A stretch of 6,836 bases of DNA from a virus (Duplodnaviria > Heunggongvirae > Uroviricota > Caudoviricetes), in the IMG/VR virus record IMGVR_UViG_2547132127_000012; one strand, given 5' to 3'. Below are positions 1 to 6,836 of the stretch, piece by piece; within the stretch, counting starts at the first letter, position 1, and each line of letters opens with the position of its first letter. The notes under the pieces were generated by a model, which saw nothing but the letters and a program-made list of their open reading frames with translations, was not told where the DNA came from and did no database searches. Made by a program: the position numbers and the translations under genes.

Positions 1-819
1 ATGTGTCAGGTATTTGGTGTATCCAGGAGCGGTTATTACAACTGGGTACAGCATGAACCCTCAGACAGAAAACAAAGTGATGAGCGGCTAAAACTGGAGA
101 TTAAGGTGGCACATATCCGCACTCGCGAAACATATGGAACCCGGCGGCTCCAGACGGAGCTGGCAGAGAATGGCATCATCGTTGGTCGTGACCGACTGGC
201 ATGTCTTCGTAAGGAGCTGAGGCTACGCTGTAAGCAGAAACGCAAGTTCAGAGCGACTACGAACCCGAACCACAATCTGCCAGTTGCGCCAAATCTGCTG
301 AACCAGACGTTCGCTCCTACAGCACCAAATCAGGTCTGGGTGGCGGACCTGACGTATGTTGCCACACAGGAGGGATGGTTGTACCTCGCTGGCATCAAAG
401 ATGTTTATACGTGTGAAATTGTCGGCTACGCCATGGGAGAGCGCATGACAAAAGAGCTGACAGGTAAAGCCCTGTTTATGGCGCTCAGGAGCCAGCGCCC
501 ACCTGCCGGGCTAATCCACCACTCTGATCGAGGTTCACAGTACTGCGCATACGATTACCGGGTCATACAGGAGCAGTCTGGTCTGAAAACATCAATGTCG
601 CGTAAAGGTAACTGTTACGACAACGCTCCGATGGAAAGCTTCTGGGGAACGCTGAAAAATGAGAGCCTGAGCCACTATCGTTTTAATAACCGGGATGAAG
701 CCATCTCAGTAATACGGGAATACATTGAGATTTTCTACAATCGTCAGCGTCGTCACTCTCGTCTGGGGAATATCTCCCCGGCAGCCTTCAGGGAAAAATA
801 TCATCAGATGGCTGCTTAA
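1..819 (+). CDS. IS3-family transposase OrfB (DDE integrase-like catalytic domain), IS600-like
   Basis: 272-aa ORF identical to the OrfB of copy 2. Carries IS3-family/retroviral-integrase-like motifs ([26 protein letters not shown]). Family is established knowledge; the IS600 name is from memory of its OrfA/OrfB. Confidence 0.85.
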
Positions 820-862
820 AAAAAGAACAAATGGTAGTGTCCGCTATTGCCAGTACACCTCA
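1..862 (+). mobile_element. IS3-family insertion sequence (IS600-like), copy 1, 3' portion only (window starts inside the element, at the orfB ATG)
   Basis: Bases 1..862 are identical to 3844..4705 of the complete copy (offset 3843). Both copies end ...gtacacctca, then flanking sequence diverges. The left end and orfA lie upstream of the window. Confidence 0.85.
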
Positions 863-1789
863 GTGAAAGAAGCACCGATTGGTATCGAGGTCATCCCCGC
901 GCACGTCACTGAATATCTGAACAAGGTACTGACTGAAACCGATCATGCCAACCCTGATCCGAAAATCGTGGATATTGCCTGCGGTCGCTCCTCTGCCCCG
1001 ATGCCGCAGCGTGTAACAGAAGAAGGAAAACAGGATGATGAAGAAAAACCGCAGCCATCTGGCGCAATGGCAGATGAACAGGCAACGGCTGAAACAATGG
1101 AACCGGATGCAACTGAACATCATCAGAACACGCAGCCGCTGGATGCTCAGTCACAGGTAAATTCTGTTGATGAGAAATATCAGGAACTGCGGGAAGAACT
1201 CCATGAAGCCCGGAAAAACATTCCGCCCAAAAATCCTGTCGATGCAGACAAATTACTGGCTGCCTCTCGCGGAGAATTTGTTGAAGGGATTAGCGACCCG
1301 AATGATCCGAAATGGATTCCCGGTCATCATATCTCCTCAAATGAAGTCAAAAAAACGGAAAATGAAGTGCGACAGACTGAAGATAAACAGCACCAGAACA
1401 GCGAACCGGAGGAGGGAACACCCTGCAATCAGACTGGCGAGGATAACTGCCCTGACTGTGGCGCGGTGATGGGAGACGCAACTTATCAGGAAACTTTTGA
1501 CGAAAAAAAACCAGATGAAGCACAGGAAGAAGAGCCGAAGAAAACGGAAAAAGCTGATGATTTGTTACCGGAGAACGCTGGCAGCGATCAGCATAATGAT
1601 AGCAATAATGAAACTGGCGAAGATGAACTCAACTGGAAAAAACAGGTGTTGATTGCGGCGGTTTACGGTTTATGTGCGAATCCTGCGTGCATAGCCTATG
1701 CGCCTGCAATCCCTGACATCGCAATGATGATTGCCAACAAGCTTGAAAATTTTGGAGTGACCAGTGATGAGCGCTTACCCGATTTTTGA
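863..1789 (+). CDS. Highly acidic (D/E-rich) low-complexity protein, 3' fragment; 5' end probably removed by the IS insertion
   Basis: The frame is open from inside the IS across the junction at 862/863. The first ATG after the junction (1001) has no Shine-Dalgarno, and no plausible start exists between 863 and 1001. Long D/E/Q-rich tract, a Cys cluster (C-x8-C-x2-C, ...[15 protein letters not shown]...), hydrophobic C-terminus. Stop at 1787-1789 overlaps the next gene's start. Identity unknown; I have a vague, unverifiable impression of resemblance to the acidic central region of Rac RecE. Confidence 0.45.
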
Positions 1790-2039
1790 TCGTATTGAAG
1801 AAATGGCATGGGCTCGCCACTACCAGCAGATCGTTCGTGAAGAAAAAGAAACGGAACTGGCGGACGACCTGGAAAAAGGTCTGCCTCAGCACCTGTTTGA
1901 ATCGCTCTGCATCGACCATTTGCAACGCCACGGTGCCAATAAACAGGCAATCAGCCACGCATTTGATGATGATGTTGAGTTTCAGGAGCGCATGGCAGAA
2001 CACATCCGGTACATGGCTGAAACCATTGCCCACCACTAG
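1767..2039 (+). CDS. Hypothetical 90-aa acidic protein, translationally coupled to the upstream ORF
   Basis: GGAG at 1754-1757, 9 nt before ATG 1767. Start overlaps the upstream stop (1787-1789) by 23 nt. No motif recognised. Confidence 0.5.
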
Positions 2040-2068
2040 GTTGATATTGATTTGGAGGACTAAAATCT

Positions 2069-3166
2069 ATGGCGCTTTTTCAACGAGCAATAAACACACA
2101 GGCCTATCTAAAAGCAGGAATTATGGGGTTTGCTGGCGACGGCAAAACCTACACAGCAAGCGAACTGGCTATTGGTCTGGTAATGCTTATGCGGCAACGG
2201 GGAATTGAAGCTGGTAACCGCCCGGTAATGTTTCTGGACACAGAAACAGGCTCTGACTGGGTTAAACCCCGCTTTGATGCGGAAAATATCGAATTATTTA
2301 CGGCAAAAACCCGCTCGTTTGTTGATCTGCTTGAAGCCATTAATGAAGCGGAAAGCAGCGGTTCCGTAATGATCATCGACTCCATCAGTCACTTCTGGAC
2401 CGGATTATGCGACGAGTATGCCAGACGCCGAAACCGTAAACGAGGACTGGAATTTTCAGGCTGGGCGTGGCTCAAACAGGAGTGGCGACGCTTTACCGAT
2501 CGATTTGTTAACAGTCAGGCGCACATTATTATGTGCGGGCGTGCAGGATATGAGTATGACTTTTTCGAAGGTGATGATGGCAAACGCCAGTTGGCAAAAA
2601 CCGGTATAAAAATGAAAGCAGAAACAGAAACCGGTTATGAACCCTCCATCCTGATCCAGATGGAGAAGCAAATGAACATAGAAACCGGTCAGGTGTGGCG
2701 CACCGCCAGAATACTAAAAGATCGCTCCACCCGTATTGATGGACAGGTATTTTCAAACCCAACATTTAAAAACTTTCTTCCTCATATCGAGTTTCTTAAC
2801 CTGGGAGGTGAACACCCCGGCATCGATACCTCACGGGATAACAGTGAATTATTTGCCAACGACGGTACACCGACATGGCTAAAAGAAAAGCGTGCAAAAG
2901 AAATCGCACTTGATGAAATTATCGAGTTGCTCAACAAGCACCATGGGGGCACCAGTAACGACGCCAAACGCGCAAAAGCTGATTTGCTGGAAAAAACATT
3001 CACCTCCCGCTCATGGGAAAGAATCAAAGGTATGGACTGGCCGACAATCAAAGCTGGTCGTAATGCACTATGGATTGAACTGGAAGGCGTTGAATATGCA
3101 TTCCCGGATCCACAAACACAAAACGAAACGCAACAAGCAGGATACGATGAGAATATTCCGGTGTAA
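2069..3166 (+). CDS. RecA-fold P-loop NTPase (AAA_24/Sak4-like topology) with a ~250-aa C-terminal extension of unknown function
   Basis: GGAGG at 2054-2058, 10 nt before ATG 2069. Walker A GFAGDGKT (aa 20-27), acidic strand motif FLDTETG (aa ~55-61), Walker B VMIIDS (aa ~101-106). This Walker A / D-T-E / hhhhDS order is typical of RecA-like and AAA_24 phage ATPases, not ABC or classical AAA+. Family assignment is from motifs, unverified. Confidence 0.8.
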   Translation: MALFQRAINTQAYLKAGIMGFAGDGKTYTASELAIGLVMLMRQRGIEAGNRPVMFLDTETGSDWVKPRFDAENIELFTAKTRSFVDLLEAINEAESSGSVMIIDSISHFWTGLCDEYARRRNRKRGLEFSGWAWLKQEWRRFTDRFVNSQAHIIMCGRAGYEYDFFEGDDGKRQLAKTGIKMKAETETGYEPSILIQMEKQMNIETGQVWRTARILKDRSTRIDGQVFSNPTFKNFLPHIEFLNLGGEHPGIDTSRDNSELFANDGTPTWLKEKRAKEIALDEIIELLNKHHGGTSNDAKRAKADLLEKTFTSRSWERIKGMDWPTIKAGRNALWIELEGVEYAFPDPQTQNETQQAGYDENIPV

Positions 3167-3216
3167 AACCAAGTGCATTTTGAACACGGTTTTTGAAAAT
3201 ATTAATGGAGGTGTTC

Positions 3217-3405
3217 ATGTATAAAATTACAGCCACTATTGAAAAGGAAGGTGGTTCTCCTACCAGCTGGACAAGATATTCAAAATCTAAACTAACGAAA
3301 TCAGAATGCGAAAAAATGCTCTCAGGGAAAAAAGAAGCAGGCGTTTCCAGAGAGCAGAAAGTAAAACTGATAAATTTTAATTGCGAGAAACTTCTGTCCT
3401 CGTGA
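3217..3405 (+). CDS. Hypothetical 62-aa lysine-rich small protein (MYKITATIEKEGG...)
   Basis: GGAGG at 3207-3211, 5 nt before ATG 3217. Lies 50 nt after the ATPase stop in an AT-rich segment and ends 36 nt before the IS left end. I suspect, but cannot verify, similarity to small Rac-prophage proteins of the ydaC type. Confidence 0.5.
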   Translation: MYKITATIEKEGGSPTSWTRYSKSKLTKSECEKMLSGKKEAGVSREQKVKLINFNCEKLLSS

Positions 3406-3441
3406 GTTGCATTATATCAAAATTAGAACTTCATAGCTGAT

Positions 3442-3470
3442 TGAGATAGCCTGAGTTTAACGGACACTCC
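3442..3470 (+). repeat. IS left terminal inverted repeat (imperfect)
   Basis: Matches the reverse complement of 4677..4705 at the terminal TGAG and the internal CGGACACT block. Confidence 0.5.
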
Positions 3471-3505
3471 TTCCTGAAATAGAATGGCATCAGAAGGAGC
3501 TAATA

Positions 3506-3808
3506 ATGAGCAGAAAAACCCAACGTTACTCTAAAGAGTTCAAAGCCGAAGCTGTCAGAACGGTTCTTGAAAATCAACTTTCGATCAGTGAAGGCGCTTC
3601 CCGATTATCTCTTCCTGAAGGCACTTTAGGACAATGGGTTACCGCCGCCAGAAAAGGGCTCGGTACTCCTGGTTCCCGCACGGTGGCTGAACTGGAATCT
3701 GAAATTCTGCAACTGCGTAAGGCGTTAAATGAAGCTCGCCTTGAGCGCGATATATTAAAAAAAGCAACAGCGTATTTTGCACAGGAGTCGCTGAAAAATA
3801 CGCGTTAA
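3506..3808 (+). CDS. IS3-family transposase OrfA (helix-turn-helix DNA-binding protein with C-terminal leucine-zipper-like region)
   Basis: AGGAG at 3494-3498, 7 nt before ATG 3506. 100-aa protein; the slippery heptamer lies near its 3' end. Confidence 0.9.
   Translation: MSRKTQRYSKEFKAEAVRTVLENQLSISEGASRLSLPEGTLGQWVTAARKGLGTPGSRTVAELESEILQLRKALNEARLERDILKKATAYFAQESLKNTR
3757..3763 (+). other. Programmed -1 ribosomal frameshift slippery heptamer (A AAA AAA) producing the OrfAB fusion transposase
   Basis: AAAAAAA then G at 3757-3764. In the orfA frame it reads ttA AAA AAA Gca. A -1 slip moves codon starts from 2 mod 3 (orfA) to 1 mod 3, the orfB frame (ATG 3844). This is the standard IS3-family arrangement. 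Confidence 0.6.
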
Positions 3809-3843
3809 TCGAACAATGGCGACAACAATTTCCCATTGAAGCG

Positions 3844-4662
3844 ATGTGTCAGGTATTTGGTGTATCCAGGAGCGGTTATTACAACTGGGTACAGCATGAA
3901 CCCTCAGACAGAAAACAAAGTGATGAGCGGCTAAAACTGGAGATTAAGGTGGCACATATCCGCACTCGCGAAACATATGGAACCCGGCGGCTCCAGACGG
4001 AGCTGGCAGAGAATGGCATCATCGTTGGTCGTGACCGACTGGCATGTCTTCGTAAGGAGCTGAGGCTACGCTGTAAGCAGAAACGCAAGTTCAGAGCGAC
4101 TACGAACCCGAACCACAATCTGCCAGTTGCGCCAAATCTGCTGAACCAGACGTTCGCTCCTACAGCACCAAATCAGGTCTGGGTGGCGGACCTGACGTAT
4201 GTTGCCACACAGGAGGGATGGTTGTACCTCGCTGGCATCAAAGATGTTTATACGTGTGAAATTGTCGGCTACGCCATGGGAGAGCGCATGACAAAAGAGC
4301 TGACAGGTAAAGCCCTGTTTATGGCGCTCAGGAGCCAGCGCCCACCTGCCGGGCTAATCCACCACTCTGATCGAGGTTCACAGTACTGCGCATACGATTA
4401 CCGGGTCATACAGGAGCAGTCTGGTCTGAAAACATCAATGTCGCGTAAAGGTAACTGTTACGACAACGCTCCGATGGAAAGCTTCTGGGGAACGCTGAAA
4501 AATGAGAGCCTGAGCCACTATCGTTTTAATAACCGGGATGAAGCCATCTCAGTAATACGGGAATACATTGAGATTTTCTACAATCGTCAGCGTCGTCACT
4601 CTCGTCTGGGGAATATCTCCCCGGCAGCCTTCAGGGAAAAATATCATCAGATGGCTGCTTAA
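3844..4662 (+). CDS. IS3-family transposase OrfB (DDE catalytic domain); in vivo made mainly as OrfAB by -1 frameshift
   Basis: 272-aa ORF identical to 1..819; lies in the -1 frame relative to orfA. Confidence 0.9.
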   Translation: MCQVFGVSRSGYYNWVQHEPSDRKQSDERLKLEIKVAHIRTRETYGTRRLQTELAENGIIVGRDRLACLRKELRLRCKQKRKFRATTNPNHNLPVAPNLLNQTFAPTAPNQVWVADLTYVATQEGWLYLAGIKDVYTCEIVGYAMGERMTKELTGKALFMALRSQRPPAGLIHHSDRGSQYCAYDYRVIQEQSGLKTSMSRKGNCYDNAPMESFWGTLKNESLSHYRFNNRDEAISVIREYIEIFYNRQRRHSRLGNISPAAFREKYHQMAA

Positions 4663-4676
4663 AAAAAGAACAAATG

Positions 4677-4705
4677 GTAGTGTCCGCTATTGCCAGTACA
4701 CCTCA
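4677..4705 (+). repeat. IS right terminal inverted repeat (imperfect)
   Basis: Reverse complement aligns with 3442..3470. The same sequence ends copy 1 at 834..862. Confidence 0.5.
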
Positions 4706-4727
4706 GATTATTAAAAATCAACCACAC

Positions 4728-4756
4728 CCGCCAGTATTCTGTATATTTACTGGCGG
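4728..4756. repeat. 9-bp perfect inverted repeat (ccgccagta N11 tactggcgg) between the IS right end and xis
   Basis: 4728-4736 ccgccagta is the reverse complement of 4748-4756 tactggcgg; the 11-nt spacer is AT-rich. No downstream T-run, so not a canonical intrinsic terminator. Confidence 0.5.
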
Positions 4757-4778
4757 TCATATCGTGAGAGGTATGGCA

Positions 4779-5060
4779 ATGAATCTTGTGACACTCAAAA
4801 CGTGGGGAAAACTCAGATATCCGGATAACCCACCATCAATATCAACGCTGAGACGATGGGCAAGGAATGGAAACATTTATCCTGCACCTGCACTACACGG
4901 GAGGAGTTACAGGGTGGTTCCGGAGGCTTTCTATATCAACCCAAATAAGGTTGATACCGATATAACACACCATCAGCCTAATGGGCGACAAGGGAGAGAC
5001 AGTCCGTTAATGGAGAAGTTAAAACATGCAGCGGAAAAAATACGATCCCAATTTGCCTAG
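4779..5060 (+). CDS. xis: Excisionase (lambda Xis-like, winged-helix recombination directionality factor)
   Basis: GAGAGG at 4765-4770, 8 nt before ATG 4779. Product MNLVTLKTWGKLRYPDNPPSISTLRRWARNGNIYPAPALHGRSYRV... resembles lambda Xis (MYLTLQEWNARQRRPRSLETVRRWVRECRIFPPP...). Overlaps int by 35 nt, as in lambda xis-int. The track's longer ORF start (4674) lies inside the IS and is rejected. Confidence 0.7.
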   Translation: MNLVTLKTWGKLRYPDNPPSISTLRRWARNGNIYPAPALHGRSYRVVPEAFYINPNKVDTDITHHQPNGRQGRDSPLMEKLKHAAEKIRSQFA

Positions 5061-6102
5061 AAACTTAACATATCGAAGGAGAGACAAAGCATATTACTGG
5101 CGCAACCCTCTGACGAAAGAAGAATTTACACTAGGTAAAATTTCAAGAAGAGATGCAGTAGCGCAGGCAATTGAAGCAAATCATTATATATACAAAAACT
5201 ACTCTCCTGCTGCCCTAATTGAAAAGCTTAAAGGGGTCGACTCATTTACTATGGCAGGCTGGATTGAACGTTACAAAACGATTCTTATAAGGAGAAAAGC
5301 GTCCAGAAATACTTATAAAACTCGGGTAAATCAACTGGAGACAATAAAAGAAAAATTAGGAGGGGTTTTACTGACAGAAATAACCACTCGCCATATCGCC
5401 GAGTTTCTTGATTTGTGGATTGAAGGAGGGAAAAACACGATGGCAGGATCAATGCGTTCTGTGTTATCTGATATGTTCCGCGAAGCCATTGTTGAAGGAC
5501 GTATATCTCAAAATCCAGTAACGCCAACAAGAGCACCGAAAATAGTAGTTACAAGAGAACGGCTGAAACTAAAGACATACAACTGCATCAGGGAGGCAGC
5601 AGATCAACTTCCGGCATGGTTCCCATTAGCTATGGACTTAGCCCTTGTAACAGGACAACGTCGCGAAGACATAACGAATATGCGGTTCAGTGATATTTAT
5701 GATGATCGTCTCCACATCAGGCAAATTAAGACAGGAATGATGATTGCTATCCCCCTGTCACTCAGCCTTCCTGTCGCTGGTTTACGACTTGGTGCAGTAG
5801 TTGAACAGTGCCGCATGGTAAGTAGGGGGGATTATCTAATCAGTGCCGGGATTAGAAAAAACAGCCCTGACGGCAGCATTCACCCGGACGGCCTGACAAA
5901 GAAATTTGTCGCAGCCAGAAAATTAACAGGTATCCTGTTCAGTGAAAACCCACCAACTTTTCACGAAATCAGAAGCCTGGCTGGACGATTGTACAAAGAA
6001 ATATGTGGAGAAGAATTTGCTCAGCGTCTACTTGGCCACACATCGGAGAAGACAACAAAAATGTATCTTGATGAGAGAGAAAAAACGTACTTACTGCTCT
6101 GA
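5026..6102 (+). CDS. int: Lambda-family tyrosine integrase (site-specific recombinase)
   Basis: GGAG at 5012-5015, 10 nt before ATG. N-terminal arm-binding region ([30 protein letters not shown]) parallels lambda Int. Catalytic motifs present: [10 protein letters not shown] (Arg), [11 protein letters not shown] (His-x-x-Arg), [13 protein letters not shown] (His...Tyr nucleophile). Confidence 0.9.
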
Positions 6103-6118
6103 TTTTAACGTAAATGGA

Positions 6119-6148
6119 TTGTTAAATGTATTTTGGTTGTGATATAAC
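6119..6148 (+). promoter_or_regulatory. Candidate sigma-70 promoter with extended -10, firing toward the sRNA locus
   Basis: -35 TTGTTA (6119-6124), 18-nt spacer, TGa + TATAAC (6140-6148). Predicted start near 6155-6157. Hexamer prediction only. Confidence 0.3.
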
Positions 6149-6180
6149 CAAAAAAGACCGGAATACAGAAATTCGAGTAA

Positions 6181-6200
6181 ATTTCGGGGAATTTCGGGGA
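6181..6200. repeat. Perfect tandem direct repeat, 2 x 10 bp (atttcgggga atttcgggga), with a degenerate third unit just upstream (6171-6180)
   Basis: Read directly. It sits between the int stop and the sdsR 3' end, where lambda-type P' arm Int-binding sites would be expected. Confidence 0.6.
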
Positions 6201-6233
6201 GACGTTTGCAACTAATTGATTTTAAATACAATT

Positions 6234-6267
6234 AAAAAAAGACCGAATACGATTCCTGTATTCGGTC
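6234..6267 (-). terminator. Intrinsic terminator of SdsR (10-bp perfect stem, 7-nt loop, then U7 on the minus strand)
   Basis: gaccgaatac (6241-6250) pairs with gtattcggtc (6258-6267); loop gattcct. A7 at 6234-6240 on the plus strand is U7 on the minus strand directly after the hairpin. Confidence 0.8.
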
Positions 6268-6336
6268 CAGGGAAATGGCTCTTGGGAGAGAGCCGTGCGC
6301 TAAAAGTTGGCATTAATGCAGGCTTAGTTGCCTTGC
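6235..6336 (-). ncRNA. sdsR: SdsR (RyeB) small regulatory RNA, RpoS-dependent, ~102 nt
   Basis: Minus strand reads GCAAGGCAACTAAGCCTGCATTAATGCCAACTTTTAGCGCACGGCTCTCTCCCAAGAGCCATTTCCCTGGACCGAATACAGGAATCGTATTCGGTC then a T-run, which matches my recollection of enterobacterial SdsR. Internal hairpin ggctct...agagcc, terminal terminator, sigma-S-type -10 just upstream. Confidence 0.8.
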
Positions 6337-6339
6337 CCT

Positions 6340-6375
6340 TTAAGAATAGATGACGACGCCAGGTTTTCCAGTTTG
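6340..6375 (-). promoter_or_regulatory. Sigma-S-type promoter of sdsR
   Basis: On the minus strand, -14 to -4 relative to the proposed start (6336) reads TCTATTCTTAA, close to the sigma-S extended -10 consensus TCTATACTTAA including the -13 C. No clear -35, as is usual for sigma-S promoters. Confidence 0.5.
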
Positions 6376-6423
6376 CGTGCAAAATGGTCAATAAAAAGCG
6401 CGGTGGTCATCAGCTTAAATGTT

Positions 6424-6465
6424 AAAAACCGCCCGTTCTGGTGAAAGAACTGAGGCGGTTTTTTT
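6424..6465. terminator. Bidirectional intrinsic terminator between yebY (minus) and the sRNA locus
   Basis: Stem ccgcc (6429-6433) / ggcgg (6454-6458) with extension gttc/gaac, flanked by A5 (6424-6428) and T7 (6459-6465), so hairpin plus U-run is present on both strands. It lies 30 nt beyond the yebY stop. Confidence 0.75.
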
Positions 6466-6494
6466 ATTGGAAATCAAAAGGCTATTTTAGGTAA

Positions 6495-6836
6495 TTAACA
6501 GAGTTTTTCAGCTCGTTCTATAAACGGTGCCAGACTCATTTTTTCGCCGGGATTGTTAGGATCATCAATCTGAATCACCGAAATGGGTTGGGCATTGGTC
6601 TTCCCACTGGCAACTTCCTTTTGTGCGATATCGTTTAAAGGATACTGCACGAGGGTACTTGGGTTGATGACATACAAAGCATTACCCGGTCGGCAAGTCA
6701 GCATTACCTCTTCGCGATTAAACGCCCATTTGTCTTTACCCACTTCAAAACGACTCACGGTTATCACCTGTGGAGCCGCCAGCGCCGCTGCAGAACTGGT
6801 GAGTAACAGAAACGCCAGAATACTTTTTTTCATCAT
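6495..6836 (-). CDS. yebY: Small exported protein with Sec signal peptide ([20 protein letters not shown]|APQ), probably host protein YebY (DUF2511)
   Basis: 113-aa ORF with a typical n/h/c signal peptide and AxA cleavage motif. Its position next to sdsR/ryeA matches my recollection of the E. coli pphA-ryeA/sdsR-yebY neighbourhood. The ATG is at the window edge (6834-6836), so upstream signals are not visible. Confidence 0.8.

Follow-up and report, generated by a model that had tools for sequence, protein, structure and literature searches.

Two IS600 copies in a prophage remnant of Shigella flexneri 5 str. 8401: a probable inversion junction and a simple insertion

IS600 was first described in Shigella sonnei and has expanded across all Shigella species. 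A 2006 publication gave the genome of Shigella flexneri 5 str. 8401 together with its IS content; 6.37% of this chromosome consists of IS elements, and IS600 is among those to which its inversions have been ascribed (PMC1550401). The genome of S. flexneri 301 has 35 copies of IS600, against a population median of 32 (PMC7373316, S1 Table). Two IS600 copies in an IS-rich Shigella genome are thus ordinary, known and already annotated biology, and the locus that we describe here is a textbook case of IS600 expansion decaying prophages and rearranging Shigella chromosomes, with little weight beyond bookkeeping. We compare it with the known IS600 element, with the Rac-type/lambdoid prophages found at ryeA/sdsR-yebY in E. 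coli, with the IS-mediated inversions of Shigella, such as those of Sf8401 vs Sf301 (Nie et al. 2006, PMC1550401; Hawkey et al. 2020, PMC7373316), and with concerted evolution among dispersed IS copies.

The window, by which we mean the whole stretch of 6,836 nucleotides that was analysed, is 100% identical over 6836 bp to S. flexneri 5 str. 8401 (CP000266.1), bearing out the Shigella-like background suggested in the original prediction. It is a piece of a decayed lambdoid prophage of this strain, a 5.3-kb remnant adjoining yebY. The same prediction had reported two identical IS copies in direct orientation. Positions 1-863 do match 3844-4706 base for base (start-to-start spacing 3843), and an exact repeat of this length cannot have arisen by chance. 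Past the repeat, identity drops to 24% over the following 100 bases. In both copies the element ends at ...CACCTCA (862 and 4705), and the 863rd matching base, a G, is a coincidence of two distinct flanks (GTGAAAG and GATTATT). Both copies lie on the + strand, making them direct repeats, with 2579 bp between them (863-3441).

That the repeats are IS copies follows from their identity to annotated elements. Copy 2 (3442..4705, + strand, complete, 1264 bp) is 99.37% identical, over 1264/1264 bp, to elements in L002 and L003 for which PGAP gives 'IS3-like element IS600 family transposase, programmed frameshift', and on this sequence match the element is IS600 (IS3 family, IS3 group, 1264 bp). In copy 2, orfA (3506-3808) matches HTH_Tnp_1 and orfB matches rve, rve_3 and rve_2 (Pfam). 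The orfB frame is open from 3745 to a stop at 4662 and overlaps orfA in the -1 frame; within this overlap a run of seven A residues (A7, 3757-3763) is the predicted site of a programmed frameshift. The left terminal repeat (IRL) of copy 2 starts TGAGATAGCC... and its right end reads ...CACCTCA. When the IS600 IRL (TGAGATAGCCTG...) is set against the reverse-complemented right repeat (TGAGGTGTACTG...), 19 of the first 30 positions match, and these imperfect inverted repeats have TG...CA ends, with the element finishing in ...CCTCA. The copies at this locus thus share with the known IS600 the length of 1264 bp, the HTH_Tnp_1 domain of orfA, the rve/DDE domain of orfB, the A7 run in a -1 overlap and the TG...CA termini. 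Copy 2 has A in place of G at position 5 of its left terminal repeat, which is not an essential difference, and copy 1 has no target duplication of its own, being a recombinant.

Copy 1 is present in the window with its right-hand 862 bp (1..862, + strand; IS positions 403-1264), which are exactly repeated in copy 2. They contain the orfB ORF (1-819, + strand) with the rve/DDE integrase core (Pfam rve, rve_3, rve_2 and HTH_21) and the right terminal repeat, which finishes ...CACCTCA at 862. The left part, 401 bp, lies beyond the left edge of the window (L004 7531-7932), and the full copy was located in CP000266.1. The predicted 100% identity therefore stands for the part inside the window but not for the complete 1264-bp copies, which in the source genome are 99.68% identical and differ at IS positions 5, 307, 313 and 324, all four in the left part of copy 1 outside the window.

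Around these elements the prophage retains the order recE, gam, AAA_24 ATPase, DUF1187/RalA, xis and int, bordered by sdsR/ryeA and yebY, that is seen in the E. coli prophages, and it is 98-99% identical to IS-free ones (L001). IS600 copy 1 truncates a recE-family exonuclease gene of the prophage, whose 3' remnant (863..1789, + strand) is collinear with the gene annotated 'RecE family exodeoxyribonuclease' in E. coli L001, starting at L001 position 3004; a Pfam search gave no match for this remnant. Next on the + strand come gam, for the host-nuclease inhibitor Gam (1764..2039; PF06064, E 3.9e-52, and E. coli annotation), the gene for an AAA_24-family ATPase of the prophage recombination module (2069..3166; PF13479, E 4.3e-15; 'AAA family ATPase' in E. 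coli) and a DUF1187 (ydaC-like) gene (3217..3405; PF06688, E 1.1e-36), to which the RalA antitoxin sRNA is antisense (3223-3401, - strand; Rfam RF02694, 216 bits, full length). IS600 copy 2 parts xis from the remainder of this early-left region. Beyond it lie xis, encoding a prophage excisionase of 93 aa (4779..5060, + strand; Pfam PF07825, gene call and E. coli annotation), and the gene for the lambda-type tyrosine integrase of the prophage remnant (5026..6102, + strand; Pfam Phage_integrase, Phage_int_M and Arm-DNA-bind_1). A search of Rfam (RF00101, 179 bits; RF00111, 118 bits) found the RyeA/SraC and SdsR/RyeB pair on opposite strands (6230..6374, + strand, and 6234-6333, - strand, respectively). 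K-12 chromosome homology restarts at 6233 (BLAST, to K-12 position 1,923,103), which marks the right prophage boundary, and the chromosomal gene yebY (DUF2511; 6495..6836, - strand; Pfam PF10709, E. coli annotation) flanks the prophage. The prophage does not sit at a tRNA gene: a scan of the window returned none. In contrast to its E. coli relatives, only the last 5.3 kb is left here, and everything that once preceded the recE midpoint has been carried elsewhere by an IS600-mediated rearrangement.

We consider it highly probable that the locus holds two separate, old IS600 copies in a prophage remnant, that copy 1 is an inversion junction and copy 2 a simple insertion, and that their identity is due to homogenisation. 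Copy 2 is an ordinary simple insertion into the DUF1187-xis intergenic region. It is flanked on both sides by GAT, a 3-bp target-site duplication (3439..3441 and 4706..4708) of the length usual for IS600, where 4 bp occur occasionally, and the empty site (...CATAGCTGATTATTAAAAATC...; target sequence GCTGATTATT) is intact in three Shigella, L010, L012 and L013, as well as in E. coli L001. Some Shigella lack copy 2 but have copy 1 and the module. In 5,426 complete E. coli genomes, the right junctions of copy 1 and copy 2 found no place with at least 80% query coverage, so both insertions are absent from that set.

The flanks of copy 1 are of a different kind. The original prediction had left its left end and 3-bp flank to be found by extending upstream, and this extension shows ...CAGACGGA on the left and GTGAAAG on the right, that is GGA vs GTG with no target-site duplication of its own, identically in 8 complete genomes. 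To the left of copy 1 lies the 3' half of chromosomal pgrR, to its right the 3' part of the prophage recE, each directly adjoining the element. On the K-12 map the left flank falls in pgrR at 1,392,424, descending, and the chromosome to the right restarts at 1,923,103, ascending; copy 1 thus joins loci that face each other head-to-head at a distance of 530 kb. The half of the pgrR duplication that copy 1 lacks was found elsewhere. A chimeric ORF predicted from the 5' part of pgrR, TCC and the reverse-complemented right end of IS600 has a tail of 23 protein letters that is exactly present in the S. flexneri protein P0242, and the reciprocal junction DNA reads ...GCAGGCGTCC followed by TGAGGTGTACTGGC. 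TCC stands between the pgrR 5' part and the reverse-complemented IS600 in L036-L041, with GGA as its counterpart at the left flank of copy 1. The partner IS600 is inverted and lies about 516 kb from copy 1 (UGYT01000001.1); this junction is seen in other S. flexneri assemblies rather than in 8401 itself. P0242 came from the cluster listing of a search with the N-terminal 144 aa of PgrR (fragment clusters). A search for full-length PgrR homologues gave full-length proteins only, with no Shigella fragment, and four chimeric proteins predicted on E. coli alleles had no exact match in the protein collection.

With one duplication split over two inverted IS600 copies and distant head-to-head flanks, copy 1 is best read as an inversion breakpoint, which accounts for its lack of a target duplication. 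Homologous recombination between inverted IS600 copies would have inverted roughly 0.5 Mb of chromosome and created the copy 1 junction, and the same inversion would have split the pgrR duplication, leaving its TCC half on the inverted element about 516 kb off. This order of events is what we infer from the junctions. On the recE side the predicted reciprocal junction is ...GGTTGCGTCAGTG followed by TGAGGTAGCC; neither it nor the 5' half of recE was found at the partner IS600, whose far flank (GTGTTCTGG...) belongs to another prophage region. A single inversion between two IS copies is therefore insufficient, and at least one further rearrangement is needed. As in the inversions described for Sf8401 and Sf301, IS600 here joins distant K-12 loci, but every S. 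flexneri assembly examined has the copy 1 junction, which makes this rearrangement ancestral and not an 8401-vs-301 difference, and unlike in those cases the other flank of the partner points to more than one event. When the edge of a window cuts an IS copy, sequence differences may go unseen, and so may the role of that copy as a rearrangement junction.

Other explanations of the pair have been weighed against this reading. IS3-family elements transpose by a copy-out-paste-in route and often land nearby, and two copies in direct orientation, 2.6 kb apart and perfectly identical over 863 bp, might suggest that one is the immediate parent of the other through recent replicative transposition, as the original prediction had proposed. 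Perfect identity of two IS copies in one assembly is, however, no evidence of recency, and for this reason orthologous copies in sister strains and other copies of the same genome have to be compared. Both insertions occupy the same sites in 8 independent assemblies (different projects, several complete chromosomes), and the two copies differ from each other at 4 positions in 8401 and at 1-13 positions in each of the 7 other assemblies. Copy-specific markers, A at position 5 in copy 2 and T at position 313 in copy 1, are kept across strains, and a third 8401 copy elsewhere has the same 862 bp. The other assemblies would have to be derivatives of 8401 for recent transposition to be revived, and their differing IS content argues against this. 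We regard recent transposition as largely refuted and very improbable. The shared sites also mean that the duplication is not an assembly artefact, in which one true IS copy would have been doubled, or the whole duplication produced, by mis-assembly. Such errors classically arise at repeats of 1.26 kb, and the expectation that they break short-read assemblies proved correct, as draft contigs end or start at these IS600 ends; a protein of the intervening module is frequently found on 2-5 kb contigs. Against an artefact, the flanks differ, with four distinct and independently supported junctions (pgrR'/IS, IS/recE', DUF1187/IS and IS/xis), the GAT duplication of copy 2 is clean and its empty site is known, and the same architecture with copy-specific SNPs recurs in the independent assemblies. 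Mis-assembly is accordingly even harder to credit.

The layout, IS-cargo-IS in direct orientation, is formally also that of a composite transposon, in which the two IS600 copies and the 2.58-kb module would have inserted as one mobile unit. The target duplications led us to reject this, and we give it next to no chance. The outer flanks form no duplication, with GGA to the left and GAT to the right; copy 2 is bracketed by a GAT pair of its own, and the Shigella with copy 1 and module but no copy 2 do not fit a joint arrival. In IS-free E. coli prophages the supposed cargo is contiguous and collinear with xis-int, and is thus native prophage sequence. An IS600-module-IS600 unit with a shared outer target duplication was not seen at any unrelated locus. 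The direct repeats had been noted as able to delete the module, which would give pgrR'-IS600-xis with the predicted product ...CCCAGACGGA, IS600, GATTATTAAAAATC; no such deletion was seen at the loci retrieved with the ATPase and the integrase, where short-read contigs cannot show one.

The preferred reading, two old insertions later homogenised, leaves the perfect identity of the right-hand parts to be explained. Between 8401 and L005 there is 1 SNP in 14,569 bp of unique flank and there are 8 in 2,528 bp of IS sequence (binomial P about 2e-6), so the density of differences between near-identical strains is about 46 times higher in orthologous IS copies than in the unique sequence flanking them. 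Among the IS600 copies examined, the exact 862-bp sequence occurs only in 8401 loci, and at least 3 copies there carry it; the perfect identity accordingly reflects a homogenisation specific to this genome or assembly. The third copy, which lies about 340 kb off and like copy 2 has 307C, was reached by an exact look-up of the 237-aa OrfB, a search biased towards identical copies. A look-up of the 272-aa OrfB returned IS600 copies of other genomes only, because 8401 calls the 237-aa form.

As for the cause of homogenisation, either non-allelic gene conversion among the IS600 copies of the genome, which number roughly 30, or a consensus filled into the IS interiors when the Sanger assembly of 2006 was made may be responsible. 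Gene conversion had been offered earlier as a source of the identity, and it is possible, but the same pattern fits an assembly-consensus effect, with the 862-bp sequence specific to the 8401 assembly and present in the third copy too. A local conversion between copy 1 and copy 2, favoured by their closeness and erasing differences in the right-hand 860 bp, would agree with the confinement of all 4 differences of the 8401 pair to the left 401 bp, the right 863 bp being free of any (P = (401/1264)^4, about 0.01 if uniform), and with the combination 604T and 816T, which both 8401 copies have and which is missing from the orthologous copies in other strains. In the closest relatives both copies read 604C and 816C, and copy 2 has 767T, 1089G and 1091G. 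The third copy argues against it, since it makes the haplotype genome-wide or assembly-wide and not specific to the pair, and consensus filling also explains the haplotype; we hold a purely local conversion to be unlikely. It is conceivable, though doubtful, that the 862-bp haplotype is real, in at least 3 copies spread over distances of up to about 340 kb and in no other IS600 copy examined, those of a sister strain with 1 SNP in 14.6 kb of flank included. If true, it would imply very rapid genome-wide gene conversion homogenising dispersed IS600 within one S. flexneri lineage. Unlike in established concerted evolution, assembly or polishing of repeats could here give the same pattern, the 8401 haplotype being assembly-specific. 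Mosaic tracts of the kind expected from concerted evolution are likewise present, for example five clustered SNPs at 570-585 in copy 2 of L006 and L011.

By repeat search and direct base comparison, positions 1-863 match 3844-4706 without mismatch on the same strand (spacing 3843), after which identity drops to 24% in the following 100 bases. The right end of the element (...GCCAGTACACCTCA) is at 862 and 4705, just where the original prediction placed it (1-862 and 3844-4705); the shared G at 863/4706 is a chance match between two flanks that differ (GTGAAAG... versus GATTATT...). Between the copies lie 2579 bp (863-3441). The right-hand copy, copy 2, is complete (3442-4705, 1264 bp, + strand), begins with TGAGATAGCC, finishes with CACCTCA and has terminal repeats in which 19 of the first 30 positions agree. 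It carries orfA (3506-3808, +; Pfam HTH_Tnp_1) and, in the -1 frame relative to it, orfB (+, stop at 4662, frame open from 3745; Pfam rve, rve_3, rve_2 and HTH_21), with an A7 run at 3757-3763 within their overlap. The element is IS600: along its whole length copy 2 shares 99.37% identity with E. coli elements to which PGAP gives the annotation 'IS3-like element IS600 family transposase, programmed frameshift'.

The window corresponds to 1,881,364-1,888,199 of the Shigella flexneri 5 str. 8401 chromosome (CP000266.1; 100% across all 6836 bp), and chromosomes with the whole region were reached by exact-protein look-up with its AAA_24 ATPase. The unique DNA represents the right end of a Rac-like lambdoid prophage and is 98.4-98.9% identical to an IS-free E. 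coli prophage across 860-3442 and 4706-6836. From E. coli annotation, Pfam and Rfam we assigned, on the + strand, recE' (863-1789, a prophage recE remnant), gam (1764-2039), the AAA_24 ATPase (2069-3166), DUF1187 (3217-3405), xis (4779-5060) and int (5026-6102), followed by chromosomal ryeA/sdsR (6230-6374) and yebY (6495-6836, -). Between the integrase gene and yebY, RyeA/SraC (+) and SdsR/RyeB (-) both lie within 6230-6374. K-12 homology restarts at window 6233 (K-12 1,923,103), a single base away from the sdsR 3' end as annotated, which places the prophage attachment site at the sdsR 3' end, inside ryeA.

A full-length RalA antitoxin sRNA (Rfam RF02694, 216 bits) is found at 3223-3401 (-), antisense to the DUF1187 gene, its 5' end 41 bp from the left end of copy 2 (3442), which is upstream. 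The toxin gene ralR is missing save its last ~31 nt (window 3194-3224, matching ralR of locus L002 at 6910-6940). In the prophage variant of 8401 the ATPase stands where recT-ralR would be, making RalA an orphan antitoxin. One assembly, CP100042.1 (L007), retains both copy 1 and the module and then loses collinearity at the equivalent of window 3182 (L007 11114 onward), right where the ATPase gene meets the ralR remnant. From there it passes into a sit-like ZnuA/ABC-transporter region that also has phage tail genes, which suggests additional recombination between related prophages.

Copy 2 is a simple insertion. Comparison of the empty site in E. coli, CATAGCTGATTATTAAAAATC, with the filled site of the window, CATAGCTGAT-IS600-GATTATTAAAAATC, identifies GAT as its 3-bp target duplication. 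In three Shigella assemblies (L010, L012 and L013) the copy 1 junction is present and the copy 2 site is still empty, hence copy 2 is younger than that junction. The left terminal repeat of copy 2 has TGAGATAGCC where the majority of the IS600 copies examined have TGAGGTAGCC, a G-to-A change at window 3446 (IS600 position 5); the exceptions are the copy 2 orthologues and one other locus (L048). The copy 2 orthologue keeps this change in seven of eight assemblies. Position 5 falls within the terminal bases recognised by the transposase, and the change may reduce the mobility of copy 2.

Copy 1 is best described as a recombinant junction. Extending upstream to its left end in CP000266.1, a check proposed with the original prediction, yields a full 1264-bp element (7531-8794 of the 8401 locus L004, +; 401 bp left of the window) without its own target duplication, the flanks being ...CCCAGACGGA-IS600-GTGAAAGAAG, with GGA versus GTG. 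On its left, copy 1 abuts the 3' half of a LysR-family gene (Pfam LysR_substrate) that adjoins mppA and ynaI. By BLAST to K-12 this gene is pgrR, cut at K-12 1,392,424 in descending direction; right of the prophage the chromosome restarts at 1,923,103, ascending. Loci 530 kb apart on the K-12 map are joined head-to-head via this one IS600, as is characteristic of an inversion in which two inverted IS copies recombined. If IS600 had entered pgrR with a 3-bp duplication, TCC (GGA in reverse complement) would be expected at the end of the pgrR 5' half, fused there to a reverse-complemented IS600 right end and giving a chimeric ORF with a defined 23-aa tail. Exactly this tail is found on the S. 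flexneri protein P0242 (160 aa), the DNA of whose loci reads ...GATGCAGGCGTCC-TGAGGTGTACTGGC, and in UGYT01000001.1 this partner IS600 is opposite in orientation to copy 1 and ~516 kb away. It is the splitting of the TCC duplication over two inverted IS600 copies that marks copy 1 as a recombinant junction. The recE 5' half was not found at the partner IS600, whose far flank is another prophage region, so at least one more rearrangement is required.

Among other IS600 loci (L026-L035 and L042-L051), nine distinct ones had both flanks visible; about three are bordered by a clean target duplication of 3-4 bp (ATG, ATG, GTCC) and about six are not, so many Shigella IS600 copies resemble copy 1 in having the look of a rearrangement junction. 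Of the eight S. flexneri assemblies that have both copies at these sites, six others than 8401 (L005, at 6598-7901; L006, L008, L009, L011 and L016) have copy 1 itself split, at IS600 position 377, by an IS3-family element of ~1.3 kb with ends TGAACCGCCCCGGG... This element shares 98.5% identity with E. coli elements that carry the annotation 'IS3 family transposase / AL1L pseudoknot'. 8401 lacks the nested element.

The direct repeat of IS copies is confirmed, and the interpretation first put on it is borne out only in part. The 100% identity holds inside the window; the full 8401 copies are 99.68% identical, with four mismatches (IS positions 5, 307, 313 and 324), all left of the window. Recent transposition, which the identity had seemed to suggest, is excluded as a copy-to-copy event by sites common to eight assemblies (CP000266.1, JANXIZ010000001.1, UAUS01000007.1, CP026799.1, UGYR01000001.1, CP084879.1, CP049606.1 and AMKF01000037.1) and by orthologous pairs that differ elsewhere: in the seven non-8401 assemblies the copies show 6, 13, 9, 9, 13, 6 and 1 differences, or 3, 9, 5, 6, 9, 3 and 1 in the window-visible part (IS positions 402-1264), with zero in 8401 only. 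The same eight assemblies, with recurring copy-specific markers (T at position 313 of copy 1 and A at position 5 of copy 2, each in 7/8), exclude the artefactual duplication that had also been proposed. Neither IS junction occurs among 5,426 complete E. coli genomes. A composite transposon was rejected as well: the outer flanks GGA and GAT form no duplication, copy 2 carries its own, and the 'cargo' between the copies is native prophage sequence.

Why, then, are the copies identical in 8401? Locus L005 differs from 8401 by 1 SNP in 14,569 bp of unique flank versus 8 SNPs in the two IS copies together (2,528 bp; binomial P ~2e-6), an excess indicating that a process distinct from point mutation alters IS interiors. 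The IS variants form mosaics also found in other IS600 copies. The pair 604T+816T is on both 8401 copies and not on orthologous copies of other strains, and 767T/1089G/1091G is on the copy 2 orthologues of L005, L008 and L009 and missing from 8401 copy 2. Only three of all fetched loci hold the exact 862-bp string, and every one belongs to 8401: the two window copies plus a third IS600 at ~2.228 Mb (L051, CP000266.1 2,226,485-2,230,198). None of the fetched IS600 copies from other genomes holds it. The identity thus characterises the genome or assembly of 8401 as a whole rather than the pair, and could be caused by non-allelic gene conversion or by IS interiors having been filled with consensus sequence in the 2006 Sanger assembly. 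The L051 copy aligns to IS600 as two overlapping pieces (positions 1-185 and 148-1264), implying a ~38-bp internal duplication near orfA, and has no target duplication (AAC versus GCC flanks).

Direct 1.26-kb repeats can, mechanistically, delete the intervening module. The deletion product, pgrR'-IS600-xis, was not among the places returned, where short-read contigs end at IS ends and cannot show it. The two-copy locus fits the published picture of IS-rich Shigella, and this biology is already known: five IS elements, IS600 among them, have expanded across all Shigella species (PMC7373316), IS600 with 35 chromosomal copies in S. flexneri 301 and a population median of 32 (PMC7373316, S1 Table), and in 8401 IS elements make up 6.37% of the chromosome and inversions are ascribed to them, IS600 included (PMC1550401). 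Reading frames leave the right ends of both window copies. One runs from inside copy 1 in frame into the recE remnant (725-1789, 354 aa, TTG start); another runs from inside copy 2 in frame into xis (4674-5060, 128 aa; native xis 93 aa) and is called as a gene in some assemblies. Both are possible candidates for IS-driven fusion or read-out products.
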